Assembly (NCBI GenBank): GCA_046724795.1
Contig: JBKOXF010000043.1
Location: 1-35,777 of the forward strand
DNA length: 35,777 nt
Source of the DNA: Actinomycetota bacterium
Lineage (GTDB): Bacteria; Actinomycetota; UBA4738; JACQTL01
Direction of reading: 5' to 3'
In this document: piece after piece, positions 1,266 through 35,777 of the stretch
Numbering within the stretch: position 1 is the stretch's first letter
Layout: every line of letters starts with the position of its first letter
Position numbers and translations under genes: made by a program
The notes under the pieces: generated by a model
The model's input: the letters and a program-made list of their open reading frames with translations, nothing else
Told to the model about the DNA's origin: nothing
The model's database searches: none

Positions 1266-1269
<4 letters not shown>

Positions 1270-2342
1270 GCCGGGCGCTCGGCTCGCTCGCGCTTCAGTC
1301 GCTCGATCGCGCGGATCGGCGCCGGGTCGAGCCCTCGAAGCAGCGCCAGATAGACGCTGGCCGCGCCACCCAGGAGGACGAGCGAGAGCTCTCCGGCCAA
1401 CGGCGAATCCCCCTCGGCGCGGACCTCGAGAGCCTCCAGCCCGCCCTCGGATGCGATGGCCGCGGAGTCTCGGATCCGCGCGGCCAGCTCCGGATGCTCG
1501 CTCTCGTGGCGCAGCACGATCAGCGTGAAGCGGTCTCTCGCCTCCCCCCATCCCTCTCCCCACGGGACGATCTCGTTGTGATCGAGCTCGGGGAACGACG
1601 CCGAAAACGCCGGCGTCTTCGCGTTCTCCTGGAACTCCGCCCGCCACCGCGCGGCGGCGACGGACCCGACGCCCTCCGCGCCCCAGATCACGGGCATCCG
1701 ATCACCGATCGCACGGGCGAGTTGCTTCGCGTCGTTTCGGTCCTCGGGGGTGCCCGGCGCCACGCTCGCGGCCGTACGGTCCAGGAGGGCAGCGGCGGAT
1801 TCCACCTCTTCCGCGAGCACGGGGACGACGCCCATCGCCTCCATGGCCCCGAGCGTCGACAGCAGGAGCGATCCCAGCGCCGTCCGGGGCGCCGGCGGAT
1901 CGCCGGGGATCACCAGGACGGGCACACCTGCCGACTCGGCGCGAGCCAGCAGCTCGCCCCCGGAGCAGACGGCGACGAGTCGGCAACCACGATCGAGCGC
2001 TTGCGCGAAACAGCCGAGCGTCTCCGTCGTGTTCCCCGAGAACGACGAGCAGACGACCAGCGAAGAGGGCGAGCAGTGCTCCGGGATCGCGACGTCCTTC
2101 ACGACGTCGATCGGGATCCGCAGCCGGTCCCGGTACAGCGCGTGGATCACGTCGCCGCCGATCCCCGAGCCTCCCATCCCGCACAGGACGATCGACCCGA
2201 CCCCGGACCCATCGGGCAATGGTTCGTGCGAGCGGCCGATCTCGTATCCGCGGCGACACTGCTCCCCCAACCCCAGGATCGCGGGGAGGATCCCCGAGGG
2301 GTCGGCCGCGGCAACGGCCGCTGGATCGTCGAGGTCGATCAC
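1266..2342 (-). CDS. SIS-domain bifunctional phosphoglucose/phosphomannose isomerase-like protein
   Basis: Track ORF 1266..2597 trimmed to GTG 2342..2340, 5 nt after the Trm112 stop. The sequence (VIDLDDPAAVAAADPSG..., CGMGGSGIGGD, SFSGNTTET) matches the SIS isomerase that sits between manB and manA in actinobacteria. The Rv3256c-type synteny is recalled from memory. Confidence 0.8.
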
Positions 2343-2347
2343 CGCCG

Positions 2348-2524
2348 TCAGGACGAAGGCTTCTCGGCCTCGTCGATCAGCATGACGGGGATGTCGTCCC
2401 GCACCGGGTACCGGTACCGGCACTCGCCGACGCACACGATGACCTGCTCGTCCTCGCGGTACTCCACGTCGCCCCGACAGTTCGGGCACGCCAGGATGTC
2501 GAGCAGCTGCTGGTCCACGCTCAT
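2348..2524 (-). CDS. Trm112-family small zinc-ribbon protein (58 aa)
   Basis: Below the track length cutoff, so hand-translated: MSVDQQLLDILACPNCRGDVEYREDEQVIVCVGECRYRYPVRDDIPVMLIDEAEKPSS. It carries the CPxC...C signature and the IPVML motif of Trm112/DUF343. ATG 2524..2522 overlaps the manB stop (ATGA). Confidence 0.75.
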   Translation of the reverse strand: MSVDQQLLDILACPNCRGDVEYREDEQVIVCVGECRYRYPVRDDIPVMLIDEAEKPSS

Positions 2525-3873
2525 GACTCCTCCCCCCTGATCTCACGAAGGACTTCCGCGGTCTTCTCCTCGAGCAGCTCCTTCGTTCGCGCCTCAACGT
2601 TCAGTCGCAGCAGCGGCTCCGTGTTCGATGGGCGCACGTTGAACCACCAGTCCTCGTACTCGACGGTGAGCCCGTCGAGACGGTCCTGCTTGCCGTCCGT
2701 AAACTGCTCGGCGAGCGTCTCGATCCTGCGCTGCTGATCCTCCACGGTGGAGTTGATCTCCCCGGACGACACATACCGGCGGAAGGGCGCCAGCAGCTCC
2801 GACAGCGGCTTCCCTGCCTTCGACATCTCCTGGAGCACGACGAGCCCCGCGATGAGCCCCGAGTCCGCGCGGTAGTGCTCCCGGAAGTAATAGTGGCCCG
2901 AATGCTCTCCGCCGAACACGGCGTCGGTCTCCGCCATGACCTGCTTGATGAACGAATGTCCGACCCGCGAGCGCACCGGCGTGCCGCCGTTCTCCCGGAT
3001 CACTTCGGGGACCGCCCACGAGCAGATCAGGTTGTACACGATGTTCGCGCCGGGGTATTTCTGGAGCATCGACTTCGCGACCAGTGCGGTGATCAGGGAT
3101 CCGCTCACGGCCTCCGCATGCTCGTCGACGAAAAACACACGATCGGCGTCGCCGTCGAACGCCATCCCCAGGTCCGCGCCGTGCTCGCGCACCGCGCGGA
3201 TGAGGTCCCGCTGGTTGTCCGGGTCGATCGGATCGGCTGGGTGGTTCGGGAACGACCCATCCAGCTCCGGATAGAGCATCACGAGCTTCACCGGCAGGCG
3301 GGCGAACACGGCCGGCACGACCAGCCCGCCCATTCCGTTCGCCGTGTCGGTGACCACGGTGAGCGGTGACAAAGCGTCGGCGTCGATGAACGACAACGCG
3401 TGCTCGACGTAGTCGTCGAGGACATCGCGCTCGCTCACGGCCCCATTCCTCGGCGCGGGCACATATTCGTCGCGCTCGGCGAGGGCCCGGATGTCGCGCA
3501 AACCCGTCTCCTCTCCCACGGGCGCCGCGCCGGCCCGGCAGAACTTCAGCCCGTTGTAGTTCGGGGGGTTGTGGCTCGCCGTGATGACCACGCCCGGCAG
3601 GGAGAGCTTGCCCGAGGCGAAGTACAGCATGTCGGTGGCGATCAGACCGAGCTGCACGACGTCGACGCCGCGGCTCGTCGCCCCCTCCGTGAACGCGTCG
3701 GCGAGCGCGGGAGACGAATTCCGGCAGTCCCAGCCCAACAGGAGCTCTCCGGAGTCCACCCACTCGGCGAACGCTGCGCCGATCCTCCTCGACGCGTCCT
3801 CGTCGAGGTCGTCGGGATAGACCCCACGAACGTCGTAGGCCTTGAAGATGCGCGCGAGAGCGTCGACTGCCAC
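2521..3873 (-). CDS. manB: phosphomannomutase/phosphoglucomutase
   Basis: 450-aa ORF with the KAYDVRG N-terminus, the active-site loop TASHNPPNYNGLK, the metal loop FDGDADR and GEHSGHYYF. The start is GTG 3873..3871. Confidence 0.92.
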   Translation of the reverse strand: MAVDALARIFKAYDVRGVYPDDLDEDASRRIGAAFAEWVDSGELLLGWDCRNSSPALADAFTEGATSRGVDVVQLGLIATDMLYFASGKLSLPGVVITASHNPPNYNGLKFCRAGAAPVGEETGLRDIRALAERDEYVPAPRNGAVSERDVLDDYVEHALSFIDADALSPLTVVTDTANGMGGLVVPAVFARLPVKLVMLYPELDGSFPNHPADPIDPDNQRDLIRAVREHGADLGMAFDGDADRVFFVDEHAEAVSGSLITALVAKSMLQKYPGANIVYNLICSWAVPEVIRENGGTPVRSRVGHSFIKQVMAETDAVFGGEHSGHYYFREHYRADSGLIAGLVVLQEMSKAGKPLSELLAPFRRYVSSGEINSTVEDQQRRIETLAEQFTDGKQDRLDGLTVEYEDWWFNVRPSNTEPLLRLNVEARTKELLEEKTAEVLREIRGEES

Positions 3874-3885
3874 GGGTCGGTCGGA

Positions 3886-3891
3886 ATCCTA
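3886..3891 (-). promoter_or_regulatory. candidate -10 element TAGGAT upstream of manB
   Basis: The minus strand reads gggTAGGATtccgaccgacccGTG. The TANNNT hexamer lies 12 nt before the manB GTG. The same TAGGATTCCG decamer recurs at 23647..23656. Confidence 0.3.
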
Positions 3892-3974
3892 CCCGGGCCG
3901 GCAGTGAACGAACGGGCACGGACTGAGGACCGAAGTGGGACGGCCGGAACCCGAGGGTGTCTCCTCGGGGGATC

Positions 3975-11080: not shown

Positions 11081-11096
11081 CCGGCCCTGAGATGAG

Positions 11097-11450
11097 CTAC
11101 CGCTTCCTCGCTGCGGTCTTCCTGCGAGCGGTGCTCTTGCGAGCGGTCGACTTCCGACGAGCCGGCGCCTTCTTGGCCGTCGACTTCCTCCGAGCGGTCG
11201 ACTTCCTCCGTGCAGGAGCCTTCCTCGCGGTCGTCTTCCGAGCGGTGGACTTCCTCCGAGCGGTCGACTTCCGACGTGCCGGCGCCTTCTTCCTCGCGGT
11301 CGTCTTCCGAGCGGTGGACTTACGGGCCGTCGACTTGCGTGCGGTGGACTTGCGCGCAGTCGACTTCCGAGCGGTCGACTTCCGACGTGCCGGCGCCTTC
11401 TTGGCCGTCGACTTCTTCCTCGCGCTGGATTTCTTCCGGGCGGTGGCCAT
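11097..11450 (-). CDS. ultra-basic low-complexity repeat protein (STARK/APARRK repeats), histone-H1-like
   Basis: 117 aa built only from M, A, T, S, P, K and R. By my count 53 residues are K/R and none are D/E. The ATG at 11450 is preceded by AAAGGGGGTGA. It lies 21 nt downstream of the whiB stop, with a terminator just after. The opposite-strand ORF 11092..11559 is its mirror image and was rejected. Confidence 0.7.
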   Translation of the reverse strand: MATARKKSSARKKSTAKKAPARRKSTARKSTARKSTARKSTARKSTARKTTARKKAPARRKSTARRKSTARKTTARKAPARRKSTARRKSTAKKAPARRKSTARKSTARRKTAARKR

Positions 11451-11471
11451 GTGTCACCCCCTTTCAGCCTG

Positions 11472-11705
11472 TCATGACGCCATGCGTTTCAGGCGTCGCC
11501 GTTCCCGTTCGCTCATCCCTCCCCACACGCCGTATCGCTCGTCGCGACGGAGCGCGTAGTTCAGGCACTCGATCCGAACGGGGCAGTCCGCGCAGATGCG
11601 CTTGGCTTCTCGGGAGGAGCCGCCCTTCTCGGGAAAGAAGACTTCCGGATCGAACTCTCGACACCGGGCCCGTTCTTGCCAAGGGATGAAGTGATGCACC
11701 GCCAT
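11472..11705 (-). CDS. whiB: WhiB-family Fe-S transcription factor (WhiB/WhiB2 orthologue group)
   Basis: 77 aa: ...WQERARCREFDPEVFFPEKGGSSREAKRICADCPVRIECLNYALRRDERYGVWGGMSERERRRLKR. It has four Cys in the C-x22-C-x2-C-x5-C pattern, the GVWGG turn and a basic tail. It is close to S. coelicolor WhiB as I remember it, and its synteny with fbiA/fbiB matches M. tuberculosis whiB2. Confidence 0.93.
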   Translation of the reverse strand: MAVHHFIPWQERARCREFDPEVFFPEKGGSSREAKRICADCPVRIECLNYALRRDERYGVWGGMSERERRRLKRMAS

Positions 11706-11949: not shown

Positions 11950-12061
11950 TGTGGAGAACGTGAGGACAGTGTGAAGAAGGTGAAGGATCGTGTGGAGAAC
12001 GTGCGCGATGCTGTGGAGAACACCGTCGATGTTGTGGAAAACTCTCGATGCTGTGGAAAAC
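11950..12061. repeat. iteron-like array of TGTGGA(G/A)AAC repeats (reverse complement GTT(C/T)TCCACA, DnaA-box-like)
   Basis: Strong copies start at 11950, 11991, 12012 (all TGTGGAGAAC), 12033 and 12052 (both TGTGGAAAAC). All are in the same orientation, with 41, 21, 21 and 19 nt between starts. A degenerate copy, TGTGAAGAAG, at 11970 fills the 41-nt gap. The last three units share the longer form CGATG(C/T)TGTGGA(G/A)AAC. The final copy abuts the fbiC stop codon (12061..12063). Confidence 0.75.
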
Positions 12062-14553
12062 TAGCGGGGCGTCACGGACGATCGATGCACTCGACCGTAC
12101 GTCGTCGTTCGTTCCACCGGCGTGCGACCGACGGCGCGGATCGCGTCGACGAGCTCCTGCGGCTCCTTGCGTATCCCCCATTCCGCCCCGGCCATACGAC
12201 TGATGGTCTCCTCCATCAACGTGCCGCCGAAATCGTTCGCCCCTCCCCGCAAGAGCAGCTGACACGCCTCGATCCCCATCTTCACCCACGACACCTGCAC
12301 GTTGCGGATCCGCCCGTGCAACAGGATCCGCGCGATCGCGTGCATCCGGCGGTTGTCGTCGTGCGTCGGGCCGGGCCGCGCCTTGCCGGCAAGGTAGATC
12401 GGTGAGCTCTGATGGACGAACGGCAGCGGCACGAACTCCGTGAACCCGCCCGACTCGTCCTGGATGCGACCGATGCGCCGGATGTGGGCGACCCAATGAG
12501 GCGGCGCGTCGACGTGGCCGTACATGATGGTGGAGGAGGACGGCAGACCCACGGAGTGGGCCGTCTTCACGATCTCCTCCCATACGTCCGCGGGAAGCTT
12601 GCCCTTCGTCAGGACCCAGCGGACGTCGTCGTCGAGGATCTCAGCCGCGGTGCCGGGGATCGATCCGAGCCCGCGCCGCTTGCACTCCTCCAGGAACTCG
12701 CGGAAGGAGATGCCGAGGCGCGCCGACCCGTTCAGCACCTCCATGGGGCTGAAGGCGTGGATGTGCATGTCGGGGACCCGCGCCTTCACGGCGTCGAGGA
12801 GCTGGAAGTAGAACTCCCCCGGGAGCGAGGGATGCAGCCCGCCCTGCATGCACACCTCGGTGGCTCCGTATCGCCAGGCCTCCTCGGCGCGGTCGGCCAC
12901 CTCGTGGAGCCGGAGCGTGTAGGACTCCGGATCGACCTCCCGCTGGGCGAACGCACAGAACCGGCACCCCGTGTAGCAGACGTTCGTGAAGTTGATGTTC
13001 CGGTTCACCACGTACGTGACGTCATCCCCCACGGCGTCGCGCCGAAGGTCGTCGGCGATCGCGCACATCGCCTCGAGAGCTGCCCCCTCCGCCTCGAACA
13101 TGGCGACGGCCTGGGCCTCGGTGATGTCGTCTGGGCGCCCGGCCGTGGCTTTCTTCAGCGCGATCTCGATCTGACGGTCCAACCTGGCACGGTCGCGCGG
13201 ACGGGCGTACCACTCGCGCGTCGCCGTGACCTCGATCGCGTCCCAATCGCCGTAGACGTCGAGCGTGTCGTCCCGAAGGGACCCGTTCGGGCCCTTCGAG
13301 AAGGTGAGCGCGATGTGCCGAGGTTTCCACTGCACGTCCGGGTCCTGCCACGCGATCGGTGCGGGCTTCGTCCCCTCGCGGGCCAGGCCGTCCTCGGCAG
13401 CGAGCGCGGCGACCGGCTTCTGCATCTTGCCGGCGATCCACGGATCCGGTCGCCGCGCGAACTCGGGCTGCGCCGCGAGCCGCTCCCGGAGCGTGAATCC
13501 CCGCTCCCCCGTCGCCACTGCCAGGCGGTAGAGCTGCGGCCAGGCCTTCTCCGGGTTCACGTGATCGGGCGTGAGCGGCGAGACGCCGCCCCAATCGTCG
13601 ATACCCGCGTCGAGCAGACGCGGATACCGCTCGTCTGAGAGGTTCGGTGGGGCCTGGACGTGCATCCTCGGACCGAACGCGATCCGGGCCACGGCGATCG
13701 CGGCCAGGTATTCGTTCTCTGATGGCGGGCTCGAGCGATGCATCGCCGTGCCCGGCTTGGGCACGAAGTTCTGGACGATGACCTCCTGAACGTGGCGGTA
13801 CTTCCGATGGAGCTCGCGGATGGCGAGGAGCGACTCGGCGCGCTCCCGCAGCGTCTCCCCGATGCCGACCAGGATGCCCGTCGTGAACGGGATCGACAGA
13901 CGGCCGGCGTCCTCGATCGTGCGCAGTCGAGCCGCGGGGACCTTGTCCGGCGAGCCGAAGTGCGGACCGCCCTTCTCCGACAGCCGGTCCGACGACGTCT
14001 CGAGCATCAGTCCCATCGACGCGCTGACGTGCTTGAGACGGGCCATCTCCTCCCACGACATCACGCCGGGGTTCAGGTGCGGCAGCAGGCCCGTCTCCTC
14101 AATGACACGAATGGCTGCGGCTCGGACGTATTCCAGCGTGGAGTCGTAGCCGCGCGCGGCGAGCCACTCTCGCGCTTCGGGGTACCGCTCCTCGGGCCGG
14201 TCTCCCAGCGTGAACAGCGCCTCCTTGCACTCGAGCTCTCGGCCGCGCGTCGCGATGTCGAGGACCTGCTCCGGCGTGAGGAACGGCGCGGCCAGCTTCG
14301 CCGGTGGCTTCGCGAACGTGCAGTAATGGCAGTGGTCGCGGCAGAGCATCGTGAGCGGAACGAACACCTTTCGCGAATACGTCACCGTCGTTCCGTGACC
14401 GAGCTCGCGAAGGCGACGGGCGATCCCCAAGAGGTCATCGAGCGCGCCGCCCGTCGCCCCCAACATGGCCTCGAGGTCGTTCACCGAGAGCGCCTTGCCG
14501 GCGTCGGCCCGCGCGAGCGCTCGCGAGAGGGAATGGTCGACCGCCCTGCCCAT
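12061..14553 (-). CDS. fbiC: FO synthase (7,8-didemethyl-8-hydroxy-5-deazariboflavin synthase), CofG+CofH fusion
   Basis: Two radical-SAM clusters, CRDHCHYCTF and CYTGCRFCAF, in one polypeptide of about 830 aa. The track ORF 12061..15078 is over-extended. I prefer ATG 14553 because it has a -10 element exactly 7 nt upstream (leaderless geometry). ATG 14586, with AAGG 3 nt upstream, is the alternative. Confidence 0.92.
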   Translation of the reverse strand: MGRAVDHSLSRALARADAGKALSVNDLEAMLGATGGALDDLLGIARRLRELGHGTTVTYSRKVFVPLTMLCRDHCHYCTFAKPPAKLAAPFLTPEQVLDIATRGRELECKEALFTLGDRPEERYPEAREWLAARGYDSTLEYVRAAAIRVIEETGLLPHLNPGVMSWEEMARLKHVSASMGLMLETSSDRLSEKGGPHFGSPDKVPAARLRTIEDAGRLSIPFTTGILVGIGETLRERAESLLAIRELHRKYRHVQEVIVQNFVPKPGTAMHRSSPPSENEYLAAIAVARIAFGPRMHVQAPPNLSDERYPRLLDAGIDDWGGVSPLTPDHVNPEKAWPQLYRLAVATGERGFTLRERLAAQPEFARRPDPWIAGKMQKPVAALAAEDGLAREGTKPAPIAWQDPDVQWKPRHIALTFSKGPNGSLRDDTLDVYGDWDAIEVTATREWYARPRDRARLDRQIEIALKKATAGRPDDITEAQAVAMFEAEGAALEAMCAIADDLRRDAVGDDVTYVVNRNINFTNVCYTGCRFCAFAQREVDPESYTLRLHEVADRAEEAWRYGATEVCMQGGLHPSLPGEFYFQLLDAVKARVPDMHIHAFSPMEVLNGSARLGISFREFLEECKRRGLGSIPGTAAEILDDDVRWVLTKGKLPADVWEEIVKTAHSVGLPSSSTIMYGHVDAPPHWVAHIRRIGRIQDESGGFTEFVPLPFVHQSSPIYLAGKARPGPTHDDNRRMHAIARILLHGRIRNVQVSWVKMGIEACQLLLRGGANDFGGTLMEETISRMAGAEWGIRKEPQELVDAIRAVGRTPVERTTTYGRVHRSSVTPR

Positions 14554-14570
14554 CGCGGCGAGCCTAGCAC
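14554..14570 (-). promoter_or_regulatory. candidate extended -10 GTGCTAGGCT positioned for a leaderless fbiC mRNA
   Basis: The minus strand reads GTGC-TAGGCT-cgccgcg-ATG. The TANNNT hexamer is at 14566..14561, followed by a 7-nt discriminator and then ATG 14553. Confidence 0.4.
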
Positions 14571-14625
14571 CCGCGACGTGAAGCATGACCTTGCCGCCGT
14601 CAAGCCCAGCAAGGAGACTGGCCAC

Positions 14626-15954
14626 GTGCAACCTCCCGAGACGCGGTACGCGAAGAGCGGCGACGTCCACGTGGCCTACCAAGTGCTGGGCCACGGCCCG
14701 ACCGACCTCGTGCTCATCCCCGGGTTCATCTCGCACCTGGAGCACCAGTGGGAGGACCCCGGGCTGGCGCACACCCTGACGCGGCTCGCGTCGTTTTCGC
14801 GACTGATCATGGTCGACAAGCGAGGAACCGGGCTGTCGGATCGCGGGGTTGGTCTCCCCACGCTCGACGAACGCATGGATGACGTCAGGGCGGTGATGGA
14901 TGCGGCAGGCTCGGACCAGGCCGCGCTGTTCGGGATCTCCGAGGGCGGATCCATGGCCATGCTCTTCACCGCGACGTACCCGGAGCGCACCCGCGCGCTG
15001 ATCCTGTGGGGGGCCTACGCCCGGCTGCTCAAAGCGCCCGACTATCCGGCGGGCGTCTCGCCCAAGCTGTTCGAGCAAACGGCGCCGTACATCGAGCCCC
15101 GGTGGGGTACCGGAGTCGGGTTCGGGGCGTGGATGCCGAGCTGCGCGAAGGACGAACGCGCGAGGGCCTGGTTCGCGAAGGCGCAGCGGCTTGCGGCGAG
15201 CCCGGCGGACGCCGTCGCATTACTCACGACGTACAACCTCATCGACGCGCGGGACGCGCTTCCGATCATCTCCCGGCCCACGCTCGTTCTGCATCGGGTT
15301 GGAGACAGGATGATCCCGGTCGAATTGGCCCGCTACGTCGCAGATCACATCCCCGGAGCTCGGCTCGTCGAGTTCCCCGGCGAGGACCACATCCTGATGC
15401 GCAACCAGGACCCCGTGCTCGACGAGATCCAGGAGTTCATCACGGGCGTCCGGCCGCAGGCAGAGCCGGATCGCCTGCTGTCCACAGTGCTGTTCACCGA
15501 CATCGTGGAATCGACGCGTCTCGCGGCTGAGGCCGGCGACCGGCGGTGGCGGGAGATCCTCGAGCGACACGAGGACGTGGTCCGTCGAGAACTCGAGCGG
15601 TACCGGGGACGGGCCGTCAAGACGATGGGCGACGGATTCCTCGCGACGTTCGACGGGCCGGCTCGCGCGGTCCGGTGCGCCGAGGCCATACGCGGCGAGC
15701 TTCGGCTCGACGGCGTCGAGATCCGCGCCGGGCTGCACACGGGCGAGATCGAGGTGATGGGCGAGGACGTCGGCGGGATCGCCGTGCACATCGCGGCGCG
15801 GGTGGCCGCGATGGCGGGGGGCGGCGAGACGCTCGTGTCCTCGACGGTGAAGGACCTCGTCGTGGGCTCAGGGATCGAATTCGAGGATCGGGGCGCGCAC
15901 GAGTTGAAGGGCGTGCCGGGCGAGTGGCGGGTCTTCGCGGTGACGTCGGCGTGA
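14626..15954 (+). CDS. alpha/beta-hydrolase / class III adenylate-guanylate cyclase fusion protein (LipJ-like), paralogue 1
   Basis: GTG 14626 with AAGGAG (14611..14616) 9 nt upstream. The N-terminal hydrolase fold has the nucleophile elbow GISEG plus HRVGDR and GEDH. The C-terminal cyclase homology domain has FTDIVEST, KTMGDGFLATF, GLHTGE and AVHIAARV. The upstream 296 codons of the track ORF run antisense to fbiC and were rejected. Confidence 0.85.
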   Translation: MQPPETRYAKSGDVHVAYQVLGHGPTDLVLIPGFISHLEHQWEDPGLAHTLTRLASFSRLIMVDKRGTGLSDRGVGLPTLDERMDDVRAVMDAAGSDQAALFGISEGGSMAMLFTATYPERTRALILWGAYARLLKAPDYPAGVSPKLFEQTAPYIEPRWGTGVGFGAWMPSCAKDERARAWFAKAQRLAASPADAVALLTTYNLIDARDALPIISRPTLVLHRVGDRMIPVELARYVADHIPGARLVEFPGEDHILMRNQDPVLDEIQEFITGVRPQAEPDRLLSTVLFTDIVESTRLAAEAGDRRWREILERHEDVVRRELERYRGRAVKTMGDGFLATFDGPARAVRCAEAIRGELRLDGVEIRAGLHTGEIEVMGEDVGGIAVHIAARVAAMAGGGETLVSSTVKDLVVGSGIEFEDRGAHELKGVPGEWRVFAVTSA

Positions 15955-17285
15955 ACGCTCCCGAGACGCAGTACGCGAAGAGCGGCGACGTCCACATCGC
16001 GTACCAGGTGGTCGGTCAGGGGCGGCGAGACCTCGTGATCGTCGCCGGATTCGCTTCACACGTCGAGCTGGCTTGGGAACTGCCGTCACTGAACCATTTC
16101 GCGTCACGCCTCGCGTCCTTCGCCCGGGTGATCCTGTTCGACAAGCGGGGGACGGGGCTGTCCGATCCGGTCTCGGACGTCCCGACGCTCGAGACGCGGA
16201 TCGACGACGTGCGGGCGGTGATGGATGCGGCCGGCTCGACCAGCGCCGCCGTGTTCGGCTCGTCCGAAGGAGCGCCCATGGCGCTCCTGTTCGCGGCGAC
16301 CCACCCCGAGCGGGTCACGGACCTCGTCTTGTTCGGGGCAATGGCACGTTCCACCGAGGCCGAGGACTACCACCTGGCCCTCCCAGCCGATGCCTACCGC
16401 GAAGCATCCAGGGAGTTCATGGGTCCCTATTGGGGTCGAGGGTACGGGGTCGAGATCTTCGCTCCGAGCCTTGCCGAGGATCCCGACAATGCGAAGTGGT
16501 GGGGGCGGATGGAGCGATCAGCGGCGAGTCCAGGGATGGCCGCGAAGCTCTCGGAGATGTTCCTCGACATCGACGTTCGATCGATCCTGCCGGCGATCCG
16601 TGTCCCCACGCTCGTCATGCACCGGCACGGCGACCGTGTGGTCGACGTCCGGGCCGGGAGGTGGCTGGCGGATCGGATCCCCGGCGCGAGGTTCGTGGAG
16701 CTTCCGGGTCGCGACCACGTGCCGTTCGCCGGCGATCCTGACCGGGTGGCCGACGAGATCGAGGAATTCCTCACGGGGACCAGGCCCATGGCCGAACCGG
16801 ACCGGGTGCTGGCCACCGTGATGTTCACCGACATCGTGGACTCGACCAAGCGAGCGGCGGAGCTCGGAGACCGGCGGTGGCGTGAGCTCCTGGAACGGCA
16901 CCACGACCTCGTCCGAGGCGAGCTCGAGCGGCATCGAGGGCGCGCGGTCAAGACGACCGGCGACGGATTCCTCGCGACGTTCGACGGGCCGGCCCGAGCG
17001 ATCCGGTGCTCCTGCGCGATCCGAGACCACCTGCGGGATCACGGGGTCGAGGTCCGGGCGGGCCTGCACACAGGCGAGATCGAGGTGATCGGCGAGGACG
17101 TCGGGGGGATCGCCGTGCACATCGCGGCCCGCGTTGCGGCGATGGCGGGGGGAGGCGAGACGCTCGTGTCCTCGACGGTGAAGGACCTCGTCGTGGGATC
17201 GGGCATCGAGTTCGAGGACCGGGGCACCCACGAGCTCAAGGGCGTCCCGGGCGAATGGCATCTCTACTCGGTGGCGAAGGCATGA
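15951..17285 (+). CDS. alpha/beta-hydrolase / class III adenylate-guanylate cyclase fusion protein, paralogue 2
   Basis: GTG 15951 overlaps the stop of paralogue 1 (GTGA). The N-terminus, VNAPETQYAKSGDVHIAYQ, is collinear with VQPPETRYAKSGDVHVAYQ of paralogue 1. It has GSSEG, HRHGDR and GRDH, plus the same cyclase motifs. Confidence 0.85.
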   Translation: MNAPETQYAKSGDVHIAYQVVGQGRRDLVIVAGFASHVELAWELPSLNHFASRLASFARVILFDKRGTGLSDPVSDVPTLETRIDDVRAVMDAAGSTSAAVFGSSEGAPMALLFAATHPERVTDLVLFGAMARSTEAEDYHLALPADAYREASREFMGPYWGRGYGVEIFAPSLAEDPDNAKWWGRMERSAASPGMAAKLSEMFLDIDVRSILPAIRVPTLVMHRHGDRVVDVRAGRWLADRIPGARFVELPGRDHVPFAGDPDRVADEIEEFLTGTRPMAEPDRVLATVMFTDIVDSTKRAAELGDRRWRELLERHHDLVRGELERHRGRAVKTTGDGFLATFDGPARAIRCSCAIRDHLRDHGVEVRAGLHTGEIEVIGEDVGGIAVHIAARVAAMAGGGETLVSSTVKDLVVGSGIEFEDRGTHELKGVPGEWHLYSVAKA

Positions 17286-18223
17286 GGGTCACGGCGCTGG
17301 CAGGCGGGGTCGGCGCCGGCAAGTTCCTGCGCGGCCTGGTCCGGGCCGTCCTGCCCGAGGACGTCACGGTGATCGTGAACACCGGGGACGACATCGTGCT
17401 GCACGGGCTCCACGTGTCGCCCGACGTGGACTCCGTCACGTACTGGCTGGCCGGGGTGGCCGACCGAGAGCGGGGCTGGGGCGTGGCCGGCGAGACGTTC
17501 CGCGCCGGGGAGAAGCTTCGCGAGCTCGGGGCGCCGGGCTCGTGGTTCAGCCTCGGAGACCTTGACCTCGCCACGCACCTTTTCCGCACCGACCTCATGG
17601 CGCTGGGCATGTCGCTCTCCGAGGTCACGCAGCGCATCACCGATCGGTTCGGCGTCCAGACGCTCGTCCTGCCGATGACGGACGACACCGTGACCACGAG
17701 GGTCCAGGCCCTGGACGAGTCGGGCACCGTCCTCGACCTTCACTTCCAGGAGTACTGGGTGCAGCGCGGCGCGGAGGACGAGGTCCAGTCGATCCGATAC
17801 GAGGGAGCGGAGCAGGCGACGCCGGCCCGCGGCGTGATCCCGGCCATCGAGGAGGCGGACGTCGTGGTGATCTGCCCGTCGAACCCGGTCGCGTCCATCG
17901 GGCCCATCCTCGCGGTGCCGGGCGTTCGCGCGGCGGTGGCCGAACGCGGGGAGCGCGTCGTCGGTGTCTCCCCCATCGTCGGTGGCGCACCGCTCCGGGG
18001 GATGGCCGACAAGCTCCTGCCCGTGGTGGGGATCGACGTCGACGCAGCCTCAGTGGCCTCGTATTACGACGGGCTGGTCCACCGCTGGGTCATCGACCGG
18101 CGCGACACCGACCTCCTCGAGCGAACCGCGGCCCTCGTTCCGGTAGCCGGCGTGTTCGACACGGTCATGGACACCGACTCGCGCGCGGAGGCCCTGGCCC
18201 GGTATGTGCTGGACCAGGCATGA
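17282..18223 (+). CDS. fbiA: 2-phospho-L-lactate (EPPG) transferase CofD
   Basis: ATG 17282 overlaps the stop of cyclase 2 (ATGA). MRVTALAGGVGAGKFLRGL...VIVNTGDD...ICPSNP are CofD/FbiA hallmarks. 313 aa. Confidence 0.92.
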   Translation: MRVTALAGGVGAGKFLRGLVRAVLPEDVTVIVNTGDDIVLHGLHVSPDVDSVTYWLAGVADRERGWGVAGETFRAGEKLRELGAPGSWFSLGDLDLATHLFRTDLMALGMSLSEVTQRITDRFGVQTLVLPMTDDTVTTRVQALDESGTVLDLHFQEYWVQRGAEDEVQSIRYEGAEQATPARGVIPAIEEADVVVICPSNPVASIGPILAVPGVRAAVAERGERVVGVSPIVGGAPLRGMADKLLPVVGIDVDAASVASYYDGLVHRWVIDRRDTDLLERTAALVPVAGVFDTVMDTDSRAEALARYVLDQA

Positions 18224-19500
18224 ACGTGGAGGTCGTCCCCGTCGAGGGCCTCCCCGAGATCCGGCCTAGCGACGACTTGCCTGCGCTCGTATCCGGGGCG
18301 CTGCGCGACCTGCGATCCGGCGACGTGCTCGCCGTCACGCAGAAGATCGTGTCGAAGGCTGAAGGCCGGATCGTTCCGGAGGCCGACGGTCATGACACCT
18401 GGGTGGCGCGCGAGACCCGCCGCGTGGTCGCGCGTCGGGGCGACGTCGTGATCGCGGAGACCCGTCACGGTTTCGTGTGCGCGAACGCTGGCGTCGACGC
18501 CTCGAACGTGGAACTCGGATCGCTGGCGCTGCTGCCCGTGGACCCCGACGCCTCGGCCGAGGCGATCCGAGCGCGCATCGCGGAGGACCACGGCGTGGAC
18601 GTCGGGGTCGTCGTCACCGACACCTTCGGCCGGCCCTGGCGGCGAGGCGTGGTCAATGTGGCCATCGGCTGCGCCGGCCTGCCCTCGCTGGTCGATCTCC
18701 GTGGGGCGAAGGATCACGTCGGCCGCGTGCTGGAGTCCACGATCGTCGCGCTGGCCGACGAGATCGCCGCCGCGAGCGGACTCGTGATGGGAAAGGACGC
18801 CATGGTCCCTGCGGCGGTCGTGCGGGGCGTGGTGCCGGTGGGACCGCCGATGGGCGCCGCCGAGATGATCCGCCCACTCGAGGAGGACCTGTTCCGCGAG
18901 TCCCCGCTGCAGTCGATCCAGGCACGACGATCGATCCGGGAGTTCGTCGCGGGTACGGTCCCGCGCGAGGCCATCGAGGAAGCGGTACGAGCCGCGTGCA
19001 CGTCGCCCGCCCCGCATCACACCCGGCCGTGGCTGTTCGTGGCGCTCGAGACCGAACCGGCGAAACGTCGCCTGATCGCCGCGATGGCCGACGCGTGGGT
19101 CCGCGATCTTCGCGCCGACGCCACGCCGCAGGACGTGATCGACAATCGCGTGGCCCGATCGCACGCCCTGCTCGGCCGGGCGCCCGTGCTGATCGTTCCC
19201 GCGGTCTCGCTACGCGGCGCCGACACGTTCGTAGAAGGACGTCGCGCGTCCGCCGAGCGGGAGACGTTCCTCCTCTCGGCCGGTGCCGCCGTCCAGGGTC
19301 TGATGCTCGCGCTCCACGCCCAGGGGCTGGCCTCGTGCTGGGTATCCTCCACGCTCTTCTGCAAGGACGAGACCCGCGGTGCGCTGGACCTCGAGGACGA
19401 ATGGGAGCCGATGGGCATCGTGGCCTGCGGGCGGCCCCTCCCCGGATCACCGCCGCCGCGGCCGGACCTGGACGTGTCCGCCTTCCTGCGTTTCACCTAG
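18220..19500 (+). CDS. fbiB: bifunctional F420-0:gamma-glutamyl ligase (CofE) / dehydro-F420-0 reductase (nitroreductase domain)
   Basis: ATG 18220 overlaps the fbiA stop (ATGA). The N-terminal CofE region reads VTQKIVSKAEGR...CANAGVDASN...VTDTFGRPWR. The C-terminal nitroreductase-like region reads SIREF...SPAPHHTRPW. 426 aa. Confidence 0.92.
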   Translation: MNVEVVPVEGLPEIRPSDDLPALVSGALRDLRSGDVLAVTQKIVSKAEGRIVPEADGHDTWVARETRRVVARRGDVVIAETRHGFVCANAGVDASNVELGSLALLPVDPDASAEAIRARIAEDHGVDVGVVVTDTFGRPWRRGVVNVAIGCAGLPSLVDLRGAKDHVGRVLESTIVALADEIAAASGLVMGKDAMVPAAVVRGVVPVGPPMGAAEMIRPLEEDLFRESPLQSIQARRSIREFVAGTVPREAIEEAVRAACTSPAPHHTRPWLFVALETEPAKRRLIAAMADAWVRDLRADATPQDVIDNRVARSHALLGRAPVLIVPAVSLRGADTFVEGRRASAERETFLLSAGAAVQGLMLALHAQGLASCWVSSTLFCKDETRGALDLEDEWEPMGIVACGRPLPGSPPPRPDLDVSAFLRFT

Positions 19501-33526: not shown

Positions 33527-34096
33527 ATGCGAAGACTCTCGATCGGATCAATCCTGGCAGCCGCGCTGTTGGCGGCGTGCCACTCGTCGGCCACCCCGCC
33601 ATCGATCTCTCGACAGGCTCCGTCGTCCACCTGCGTCGAAGGATGGTCGACGCCCTCGTCCGCGTCGCCCGACGTGACCACCGCGGTCAAGGTGATCCGG
33701 ACCACGCTCGGCGTGAAGTCTCCACTCAAGGTCGTCGCCACCCGGTTCTTCTCCGGCCCGGAATCCCCGCCCCGGGAAGACAAGGCCTATCTGAAGGTGG
33801 TCGACCGGTGGTACGTGAAGGCGCAGGAGAAGGGCGACCCCTCCGTGGGCGGGAGGTTCCTGGTGGAGCGGCGGCAGTTCGGGATCGGGCTGGTCGCGGC
33901 GGCCCCCCTCGACACGTCCGGCTTCAGCTCGGACGACTGGGTGGGGTTCCAGGGCGAGCCGGGTTCGGTTCCCCAAGCCGTCGAGGGCATCCCCGGGAAG
34001 GTCGCGGCCGTGACCTATGACTTCGTGGACGGCGGGGAGGGCCTCGACATCCCCGGCCTCCCCTCGATGGTGGCCGGCTGCATGAACGGCACATGA
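33527..34096 (+). CDS. putative lipoprotein of unknown function
   Basis: ATG 33527 gives MRRLSIGSILAAALLAAC with the lipobox LAAC. 189 aa. The track ORF begins earlier, at 33416. Confidence 0.6.
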   Translation: MRRLSIGSILAAALLAACHSSATPPSISRQAPSSTCVEGWSTPSSASPDVTTAVKVIRTTLGVKSPLKVVATRFFSGPESPPREDKAYLKVVDRWYVKAQEKGDPSVGGRFLVERRQFGIGLVAAAPLDTSGFSSDDWVGFQGEPGSVPQAVEGIPGKVAAVTYDFVDGGEGLDIPGLPSMVAGCMNGT

Positions 34097-34106
34097 GCGA
34101 GGTCCG

Positions 34107-35777
34107 ATGAGCGAGATCGCGGTGGCCCCCCCCGCCGCGAGGCCGGAGGAGCCATCGCCCAAGGCGTCAGCGCTTCGCCGCGCCGCCACGTTCCTCGCTG
34201 GAGCCTCCGTGGTGATCATCCCCGCGATCATCGTGGCCGGCCTGTTCCTGTCGCTGTACATCTCGCGCCATCAGGTCATCCCCGTCGGGGCCGACACTCC
34301 CCAGTACCTCTGGCGGGCGCGACTTGCCGAGGTCGGCGGGCTGAGCGCGCTCCCTCTGCACCTCCCGAACCCCTTGAACCCCAACGCCGATCGGCCCGGG
34401 TACCCGATCCTGGCGTCGCTGTTCCACGCGGGGACCGGCGTGACGGCCTTCCAGATGTCCTACCTCGTGCCGGCGGTGTTGAGCGTCGTGATCGGGCTTG
34501 CGGGGGCCGCGTTCGCTCGCGGTGGGATGCGTGAGCCGTCGTGGAGCTTCGCCGTGTACGCGGTGCTCATCGGGGCCTCCGTGAACGTCGCGATCACCGC
34601 ATACGGCTACATCGACAACCTCACCATCGACGGCGTCCTCATCGCGGCTGCGCTCATGGCGCTCCTCGCGGCGGATGGTCGGCCCGCCATCGGGGCTGGC
34701 GTGTTCCTCATGGTCGGCGCCGTGGCCATCCACTGGATCTTCGTCGTGTTGGTCGCCGCCCTCATCCTGGGGACTGCGGTGCTCCTCGTCCCGGAGTCGA
34801 TCGTGGCAAGACGCGGCGGAACGAAGCTGTGGAAGACCCCGTCCGGACGGATGGCGACGATGGTCGCGGCCGCCATACCGCCCAGCCTCGCCGTGCTCTT
34901 CCTCGCGCCCGCCCGCCACGGGCCGCCGCACGGGTTGATCCACCACGGACAGGTCGGGAAGCTCGACCGCCAGCTCCCCTACTACCGCATCCCGTGGGTG
35001 TGGCCGTTCGCACTCGGCGGCGCCGTGGCCACCGCGATCCCGCCGAGGCCACAACGGATCCGGGCCCTCCTCATGCTGGGGATCTGGGCCCTCTCACCTC
35101 TCCCCGCCGTGTTCCTGTTGCACCACGGGTACAACGTGCCGTCGCAGCGGATCCTGGGGTTCGCGTACGGGATCCCCCTCCTCGCCACGGCTGCCCTCGT
35201 CGGCGTCGGACGGCTCCTCAGCGCGAAGGTCCGATGGGTGGGGGAACCGCTCGCCGCCGTGGTGGTGCTCGCGGGGATGGCGGCCGGGGTGTTCCTCGCG
35301 CACCAGGCGTGGTACTCGCGGTCGCCCTTCATGCCGACGACGAGCGTCCCGGACCTTCTGACAGCGGCGAAGTACATGGAGCACACCGAGCCCGGTCACC
35401 CGGTCGTGTTCGTGACGAACAACCCGGCGCTCCCGTGGCGGGGGTTCATCCCGGGGTTCCGGCGGCTCCGCGCGTTCGCGCCGCCGGACCACATCGGCGA
35501 CATCTACATGTATCCAGGGAGACTGGCCGACGCGCTCGCGGGCAAGCCCGACGAACCGCCGGACAACACGAAGCTCGCGCACCTCTCCGCGAACGCCTGG
35601 CCGCAGCTGAAGTACGTCATGGCCCAGAACCCGACGCTCGTCGTGATGCGCCTCTATTACCCGAACTTCGACCAGGTGCGCCAGCAGCATCCGGACTGGG
35701 CGATCACCTCTCGGTTCCTCGTCGCGCGGGGGCCGCGGCCACCGGCGAGCGAGCTCCAACCCGGGACGCTCACGCTG
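34107..35777 (+). CDS. large polytopic membrane protein, possible GT-C-type glycosyltransferase or polymerase (3' end beyond the window)
   Basis: Absent from the track because it has no stop. I checked codon by codon that the frame from ATG 34107 stays open for 557 codons to the last base. GAGG lies 4 nt upstream, and the gene starts 10 nt after the lipoprotein stop. It has about 9-11 hydrophobic helices (e.g. FLAGASVVIIPAIIVAGLFLSLYI, GAGVFLMVGAVAIHWIFVVLVAALILG) and then a soluble C-terminal region. The minus-strand track ORFs here are Arg/Gly/Pro-rich shadows. Confidence 0.7.
   Translation, partial: MSEIAVAPPAARPEEPSPKASALRRAATFLAGASVVIIPAIIVAGLFLSLYISRHQVIPVGADTPQYLWRARLAEVGGLSALPLHLPNPLNPNADRPGYPILASLFHAGTGVTAFQMSYLVPAVLSVVIGLAGAAFARGGMREPSWSFAVYAVLIGASVNVAITAYGYIDNLTIDGVLIAAALMALLAADGRPAIGAGVFLMVGAVAIHWIFVVLVAALILGTAVLLVPESIVARRGGTKLWKTPSGRMATMVAAAIPPSLAVLFLAPARHGPPHGLIHHGQVGKLDRQLPYYRIPWVWPFALGGAVATAIPPRPQRIRALLMLGIWALSPLPAVFLLHHGYNVPSQRILGFAYGIPLLATAALVGVGRLLSAKVRWVGEPLAAVVVLAGMAAGVFLAHQAWYSRSPFMPTTSVPDLLTAAKYMEHTEPGHPVVFVTNNPALPWRGFIPGFRRLRAFAPPDHIGDIYMYPGRLADALAGKPDEPPDNTKLAHLSANAWPQLKYVMAQNPTLVVMRLYYPNFDQVRQQHPDWAITSRFLVARGPRPPASELQPGTLTL

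Follow-up and report, generated by a model that had tools for sequence, protein, structure and literature searches.

In Mycobacterium tuberculosis, the F420 genes fbiA and fbiB form an operon that we take to lie beside whiB2 (Rv3260c-Rv3262), and LipJ (Rv1900c; structures 1ybt and 1ybu; NCBIfam model NF058673), in which an alpha/beta-hydrolase is joined to a class III cyclase, is presumably not encoded next to F420 genes in that genome. Here we analyze a 35,777-nt stretch of DNA from an uncultured member of the Actinomycetota (hereafter, the window), in which a four-gene locus at 14626-19500 places two genes of the LipJ type, termed g1 and g2, directly ahead of fbiA-fbiB. The arrangement is real, restricted to few lineages and unstable, and it looks more like operon hitch-hiking than new F420 biology. 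On balance, we favor a lineage-specific insertion of a LipJ-type gene at the head of fbiAB, followed by tandem duplication, in which the cyclases would be co-transcribed with the F420 genes and have no dedicated F420 role. Since no link of an adenylate cyclase with fbiA, fbiB or F420 was found among the best-ranked literature matches, the arrangement appears to be an undescribed gene-order variant of known parts.

LipJ is reported to be a characterized esterase (PMC10865251), and it shares its two-domain architecture with g1 and g2 over their full length. When the g2 cyclase domain was aligned to the Rv1900c catalytic domain (1ybt; E 3.7e-49), the motifs FTDIV, GDGF, RAGLHTGE and AVHIAARV were conserved, and g1 carries the same motifs. 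LipJ and both window proteins share the metal-binding Asp in FTDIV, the GDGF motif and the Arg in R(A/I)G(L/I)H, and in all of them His replaces the transition-state Asn (AVHI(A/G)ARV); the Asp...His...Arg of g2, conserved with LipJ, lie in EDVGGIAVHIAAR. The proteins differ at the substrate position, where g1 and g2 carry the canonical Lys (VKTxGDG), whereas LipJ has Asn (VNTAGDG). The LipJ residues compared here are those of the 1ybt alignment.

The second-best structural relative of the g2 cyclase domain (E 3.6e-28) is Ma1120, an adenylyl cyclase that mutational work has used as its model (PMC4215837). Ma1120 has the Lys/Asp pair, with Ala rather than Asn at the transition-state position, and its solved constructs, judged from the deposited chain lengths (171-210 aa), cover little beyond the cyclase domain and lack an alpha/beta-hydrolase. 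The N-terminal domain of the window proteins aligns over ~250 residues with the receptor-type hydrolases RsbQ and D14/KAI2 (E ~1e-10 to 1e-13). The likeness is one of general fold; matches to ordinary esterases are as strong or stronger (4uhc, 2.4e-15). RsbQ and D14/KAI2 couple small-molecule hydrolysis to signaling, and by analogy the hydrolase domain could plausibly regulate the cyclase.

Compared with the mycobacterial fbiAB region, the window has the same whiB-family gene, fbiA and fbiB as neighbors, followed by sugar-nucleotide and glycosyltransferase genes, and the 4-nt overlap between fbiA and fbiB is a further likeness. It differs in that fbiC lies divergently between whiB and fbiA, and in that one or two LipJ-like genes precede fbiA in the window and its relatives.

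The four-gene locus and its two cyclases

The genes g1 (14626..15954; 442 aa) and g2 (15951..17285; 444 aa) are followed on the same plus strand by fbiA (cofD; 17282..18223) and by fbiB (18220..19500), which encodes a CofE ligase with a nitroreductase-like domain. The three junctions read as an earlier note on this DNA had described them: GTG 15951 overlaps the g1 TGA at 15952-15954 (GTGA), ATG 17282 overlaps the g2 TGA at 17283-17285 (ATGA), and ATG 18220 overlaps the fbiA TGA at 18221-18223 (ATGA). The overlaps indicate an operon, yet they are unremarkable by themselves; 4-nt overlaps are possible in up to 10 of the window's 24 same-strand neighbor pairs, at least three of them clearly outside the locus, a count that rests on rough composition-based gene calls, and since such overlaps are common in this genome, those in the locus are no anomaly. 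The composition-based caller was otherwise used only for choosing neighboring open reading frames (ORFs) for Pfam scanning. Within the locus, the GC content at the three codon positions (GC1 ~0.72, GC2 ~0.48, GC3 ~0.86-0.92) favors the frames on the plus strand and identifies the long ORFs of the minus strand as shadow frames.

The identities that the same note had given to these genes also stood up. Both g1 and g2 match Pfam Abhydrolase_1 (3.1e-14 and 9.4e-15, respectively; residues about 28-259) and Guanylate_cyc (1.2e-11 and 1.4e-12), and they are 63% identical to each other. The fbiA product matches TIGR01819 at 343 bits (cutoff 257), and that of fbiB matches PRK13294 at 482 bits (cutoff 304) and contains the Pfam F420_ligase and Nitroreductase domains. 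The model for the FbiB C-terminal domain, TIGR03553, scores 206.5 bits over 18220-19500, below its cutoff of 249.55, although Pfam Nitroreductase and the model for full-length FbiB both exceed their thresholds. Directly upstream and divergent from g1 lies fbiC (12061..14553, minus strand), encoding FO synthase as a CofG/CofH fusion with two Radical_SAM stretches and CofH_C; its counterparts in 20 related genomes are 70-82% identical to it. Its start was revised to ATG 14553 from a CAT conserved in alignments of the relatives, replacing starts at 14586 or further upstream, and the divergent gap to g1 is thus 72 nt. No mobile-element signature was found around the insert, where the only repeats are those of the g1/g2 paralogy, and an Rfam scan returned nothing informative.

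The LipJ model NF058673 is matched over positions 6-448 of 449, with scores of 455.6 bits for g1 and 473.3 bits for g2. Both are far below the equivalog cutoff of 800, so the two proteins are taken as paralogous members of the family rather than as LipJ orthologues. The hydrolase triad motifs are present in each (GISEG in g1 and GSSEG in g2, followed by GDR and (E/R)DH), and the consensus Ser (GxSxG), Asp and His each occur in at least 90% of 90 family members. Both also carry the Lys/Asp substrate-specifying pair (VKT(M/T)GDG and EDVGG), which is conserved in adenylyl cyclases (PMC4215837), and because this pair specifies adenine, the predicted product is cyclic AMP (cAMP).

Catalytically dead cyclase domains, which the earlier note had considered, are not what we find, since the catalytic residues are intact in g1 and g2. 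In comparisons with orthologues, the ratio of nonsynonymous to synonymous substitution rates was 0.10-0.13 in g2, whereas g1 gave 0.23 (against its L161 orthologue) and the g1 hydrolase domain alone 0.27; the values for fbiA were 0.06-0.08. These values imply that both genes are functional, with g1 under more relaxed constraint, and, taken with the intact residues, they point to functional signaling enzymes kept by purifying selection.

The two copies differ most in the hydrolase domain (53% identity, vs. 82% for the cyclase domain), and g1 evolves about twice as fast as g2; the best interpretation of g1 is that it arose from g2 by tandem duplication and that its hydrolase domain diverges rapidly. 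A neighbor-joining tree had suggested that g1 was a separately recruited paralogue, which we set aside because its best non-orthologous matches are the g2 group and its cyclase domain is so close to that of g2. Recent gene conversion was likewise rejected as the cause of the near-identical C-terminal 55 residues, a block that is conserved family-wide and in which third-position identity is 70-77%.

Distribution and history of the inserted genes

The adjacency was examined from the fbiA side in 20 Actinomycetota metagenome-assembled genomes, one per GTDB species, with FbiA identities of 58-66%. All 20 have the divergent fbiC/fbiA-fbiB layout. No gene lies between fbiC and fbiA in 17 of these nearest genomes, and one LipJ-like gene occupies the slot in the remaining three (L003, L009 and L010), as one or two do in five metagenome contigs (L161, L162, L163, L169 and L170). 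The orthologue in L163, a single copy, is 90% identical to g2, with FbiC, FbiA and FbiB together (FbiC+A+B) 92% identical to those of the window; the corresponding g2 identities are 86% in L161/L162 (two copies), 71% in L169 (two copies), 68% in L009 (one full copy, upstream of fbiA) and 67% in L170 (one copy). Copy number in the slot is therefore 0, 1 or 2 even among close relatives, and a body of the g2 type is kept in every insert-bearing relative of the window's clade. In a bootstrapped neighbor-joining tree of FbiC+A+B, the window, L163, L161 and L009 form a clade with 100% support, all of whose members bear the insert.

Two loci retain traces of a former second copy. The single LipJ-like gene of L163 (L163:1765-3099) is a g1/g2 chimera, having the g1 upstream region and first 20 nt and being g2-type from nt 45, with the crossover in a 5'-end stretch that is identical between g1 and g2. 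In L009, a mini-ORF (L009:6510-6640; VDIPETQYAKSDGVEIA / GSGEVLVSGTVRDLVAGSGIEF...) fuses the first 17 LipJ-like residues to ~25 residues of the C-terminal cyclase block and overlaps the start of the full-length gene; it is a remnant of an internally deleted upstream copy. From the chimera and the remnant it follows that the two-copy state is old and has collapsed at least twice, the g2-type body always being kept.

Outside these genomes, the next-best FbiA relatives (L021-L080; 45-55% identity) came mostly from Bathyarchaeia and in part from Acidobacteriota, not from cultured actinomycetes, which may be an artefact of the peptide-pattern search. The L169 locus (L169:1-3634) is a mosaic, in which FbiA is 89%, the LipJ-like gene 71% and FbiB 61% identical to the window, and this suggests recombination within it.

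Seen from the cyclase side, the family is large, with 7,042 clusters at 50% identity with E<=1e-30 (which may include single-domain matches), the best 150 of the 7,042 being near-full-length matches, and with more than 8,000 matches, a lower bound, in a 90%-identity database. The taxon names on close LipJ homologues were only Solirubrobacterales and Solirubrobacteraceae. None of 80 metagenomic loci with a LipJ-like gene 55-68% identical to g2 carries fbiA, fbiB or fbiC in its flanks. The 112 immediate neighbor genes match 137 Pfam families, none of them in more than three neighbors, and the 25 commonest families include none related to F420. A neighborhood survey of the kind that the earlier note had proposed thus upholds the cyclase-fbiA adjacency for the window's subclade and for L003/L010, but not for 17 of the 20 nearest genomes or for any of the 80 homologues.

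A same-strand partner follows within 40 nt in 12 of the 55 loci that have a downstream gene. Ten partners were scanned: an SBF transporter, a Zn-dependent alcohol dehydrogenase, an FAD oxidoreductase, a GNAT acetyltransferase, a DUF2214 protein, a cation-efflux protein, two thiolases after tandem LipJ pairs, and two cyclic-nucleotide-binding proteins, the last two supporting a real cyclic-nucleotide output of the family. In L127 and L143, a protein with a cyclic-nucleotide-binding domain overlaps the LipJ-like stop codon, likely a cyclase/receptor pair. The tandem LipJ-like pair with a tightly coupled thiolase stands on two unrelated contigs (L140:26-3658 and L158:4147-8777). On a further contig of 4.5 kb (L166:1-4490), four consecutive LipJ-like genes are present with no F420 genes; the first copy looks degraded or split, and 4-nt overlaps link the complete copies. 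A different conserved context (MeaB / LipJ-Hexapep-ABC) holds homologues with 68-70% identity to g2, and another LipJ-like homologue adjoins RibD_C. Together, the partners, arrays and contexts show that genes of this family generally tend to amplify in tandem and to couple tightly to whatever unrelated gene lies downstream.

Transcription of the locus and competing explanations

The putative divergent control region of the window spans 72 nt (14554..14625). In insert-less genomes, the fbiC/fbiA intergenic region is ~30 nt in all (L004:7975-8003 and equivalents), and 13 of the 17 share a compact form (L001, L004, L005, L007, L008, L011-L016, L018 and L019), in which CAT, the fbiC start, is followed by 6-9 nt, GAGC(C/G)TACTACGCT, ~7 nt and the fbiA ATG. 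The near-palindrome AGC(G/C)TA-C-TACGCT in this region reads as a TANNNT -10 hexamer on each strand, 7-9 nt from each start codon. A TANNNT hexamer at 7-9 nt before the start codon is the geometry of leaderless actinobacterial promoters, and since the spacing fits this consensus, the insert-less core resembles a minimal bidirectional promoter, from which two leaderless mRNAs would start.

The GCGAGCCTA core of 14554..14625 is common to the insert-less genomes, and its fbiC-proximal half is kept in the window as GCGAGCCTAGCACC, with a minus-strand -10-like TAGGCT (14561-14566) 7 nt before the fbiC ATG at 14553. The TACGCT hexamer that stands 7 nt before the fbiA ATG in insert-less relatives is missing from the window, and the sequence ahead of the window's fbiA ATG has no TANNNT hexamer at leaderless spacing. 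On the plus strand, the g1 GTG at 14626 is preceded by AAGGAG (14611-14616, 9 nt away) and GAGACT (14614-14619, 6 nt away); an AGACT motif was tried as a family-wide element upstream of LipJ-like genes and proved not to be general. In L170, the LipJ-like GTG lies 6 nt behind a TACACT hexamer in the corresponding compact region, which is the position of fbiA in the insert-less genomes.

An independent fbiA promoter, which the earlier note had considered, was not found: a sigma-70 consensus scan, which GC-rich actinobacterial promoters would escape, gave no internal promoter in the locus. There was also no convincing terminator in the locus, one weak terminator-like match being at the level of shuffled controls. 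With TACGCT lost and the fbiA start lying within the stop codon of g2, transcription of fbiA-fbiB should pass through g1-g2, barring an unrecognized internal promoter, and g1-g2-fbiA-fbiB is most likely one transcription unit. The obligate co-expression with the F420 pathway that had been proposed for the cyclases is thus retained in part; the overlaps and the lost -10-like element make a single unit likely, but the genes are not obligate for F420, since 17 of the 20 nearest genomes do without them.

In the reading that we favor, a LipJ-type gene would have inserted between the divergent fbiC/fbiA promoter region and fbiA in the ancestor of a small clade of uncultured soil Actinomycetota, and would then have been tandemly duplicated to give g1 and g2, with loss of fbiA's own -10-like element during insertion or duplication. 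The four genes would be expressed as one mRNA from the 72-nt divergent region, with the downstream genes translated by termination-reinitiation at the GTGA/ATGA overlaps. The predicted products of g1 and g2 would be ordinary dimeric cAMP-producing signaling enzymes, and their position at the operon head would reflect the family habit of tandem amplification and of riding ahead of unrelated operons. Co-transcription, translational coupling, the cAMP product and the absence of a pathway role are what we infer from these comparisons.

Several observations weigh against this reading. The LipJ-like gene overlaps fbiA by 4 nt in five of eight insert-bearing loci (the window, L163, L009, L010 and L003), and it is kept at the exact slot over considerable divergence, with g2 identity as low as 67% and FbiC+A+B identity of 76%. 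L003 and L010 belong to the other major clade of the FbiC+A+B tree, L003 as sister to five insert-less genomes (100%) and L010 paired with the insert-less L011 (72%), and per-gene nearest neighbors agree with these placements. Moreover, a clade of the LipJ family tree with 94% support holds the g2 group together with non-adjacent paralogues and excludes L003/L010. If the insertions were independent, their recurrence at one slot would be above chance, since ~320 kb of sequence around the locus, in the window and the 20 relatives combined, contains no LipJ-like gene outside the slot, which puts the background density at about one per 100 kb at most.

How much this recurrence counts depends on the history of L003 and L010. 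Both junction motifs are shared between them (TATCACC ... GCCGCAGACTGCxxCGGATG), so their insert represents one event, whose patchy spread implies recombination or loss. One possibility, from the position in the family tree, is that this event was separate from the insertion in the window's clade. Another is a single origin of all insertions, to which the identity trend and the shared junction elements point, L003/L010 having 55-59% LipJ identity against 68-69% for FbiC+A+B, on the trend of clear orthologues (L009: 68% vs. 76%), and TA(G/T)CACC and AGACTG being common to L003/L010 and the window. The window's own case is no evidence for recurrence, since the window was selected for it, so that no more than one additional independent event (L003/L010) can be counted against about ten independent insert-less lineages. 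The recurrence is then suggestive (p = 0.03-0.1 on a rough reckoning), and it vanishes if all insertions share one origin. It seems to us unlikely that LipJ-like cyclases arrived behind the fbiA promoter on several occasions and were kept there by selection, with cAMP wired to the expression of F420 tail assembly, or with the hydrolase sensing an FO/F420 metabolite so that a second messenger would report deazaflavin cofactor status.

A lineage-specific regulatory link, in which cAMP output tracks F420-tail biosynthesis or the hydrolase senses a metabolite of FO/F420 status, could account for the retention of the gene in every member of the window's clade and for the insert in L003 and L010, which insert-less genomes set apart from that clade. 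It would also fit the dependence of fbiA on read-through once its own -10-like element was gone, the selection on intact catalytic residues, and the resemblance of the hydrolase domain to D14/KAI2 and RsbQ. We nevertheless regard such a link as possible but doubtful. Most of the nearest genomes have fbiC, fbiA and fbiB with an empty slot, g1 is dispensable and was lost twice, none of the 80 close homologues is F420-adjacent and their neighbors are functionally heterogeneous, and the best-ranked literature never pairs an adenylate cyclase with these genes or F420. Furthermore, the shared junction motifs (TA[G/T]CACC ... AGACTG) may reflect a single event that recombination has since spread or removed, and not convergence.

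The genes might instead be adjacent without being co-expressed, fbiA-fbiB being driven by an unrecognized promoter in the 3' end of g2. The blindness of the sigma-70 scan to GC-rich promoters leaves room for this, and the spacing between the LipJ-like gene and fbiA is wider in some relatives, with a 13-nt gap holding a GGAGG-type ribosome-binding site before fbiA in L161/L162 and L169, and 23 nt, by the gene caller, in L170. However, the window has neither the ancestral TACGCT nor any other TANNNT hexamer at leaderless distance from fbiA, and stop and start codons overlap in most insert-bearing loci, so that we consider a separate promoter quite improbable. Least credible of all is a role for the hydrolase domain as a missing or auxiliary F420 enzyme in tail trimming or precursor processing, an activity on an F420 precursor or tail that had been suggested earlier and for which we find no support. 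Adjacency and the intact Ser-Asp-His triad speak for it; most relatives with fbiC, fbiA and fbiB have no such gene, the nearest paralogues adjoin unrelated genes, and, to our knowledge, the revised bacterial F420 pathway requires no esterase step.

Genomic setting and implications

In order, the window carries genes for AdoHcyase, PNP, a PGI-like protein, PGM/PMM, DUF3499, an L,D-transpeptidase, DUF5719 and a GT2 glycosyltransferase, continues with whiB (on the minus strand), fbiC, g1, g2, fbiA, fbiB, DUF5654, DUF3105 and a SpoIID/LGFP protein, and then has an NTP-transferase, a methyltransferase, further glycosyltransferases, a Wzm/Wzt ABC exporter, RmlD and an RmlB-like dehydratase. The whiB-family gene (11472..11705, minus strand; 77 aa) was located by tblastn with the Pfam-Whib-annotated gene of L161, which matches the window at 11705-11475 with 100% identity over residues 1-77, 11472 including the stop codon. 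Its presence identifies the window as the conserved actinobacterial whiB/fbiAB region, and the gene content presumably matches the region around whiB2-fbiA-fbiB in M. tuberculosis.

No further LipJ-like copy is present elsewhere in the window; ORFs of 443 and 441 aa at 1266-3919, considered as extra copies, proved to be the PGI-like and PGM/PMM genes. Between the GT2 gene and whiB, two ORFs overlap on opposite strands: 11097-11450 (minus) has a sub-threshold match to a histone-like HC2 model (35.9 bits, cutoff 40), and 11092-11559 (plus) is called as a gene in L161 and has no Pfam match. Near the end of the window, ORFs at 33674-34096 (plus, 140 aa) and 34212-35777 (plus, more than 521 aa, running past the window end) have a strong coding signal and no Pfam match.

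If a functional link between the cyclases and fbiAB were true, it would be the first connection known to us between cyclic-nucleotide signaling and F420 supply, and it would matter for actinobacterial redox stress and prodrug activation. The analysis also carries a caution, in that a single translationally coupled neighborhood is poor ground for inferring function. On the reading that we favor, the locus shows an expanded family of signaling enzymes spreading by tandem amplification and insertion at operon heads, and it illustrates that a gene arriving in this way can capture a compact promoter and leave a housekeeping-type operon dependent on read-through.

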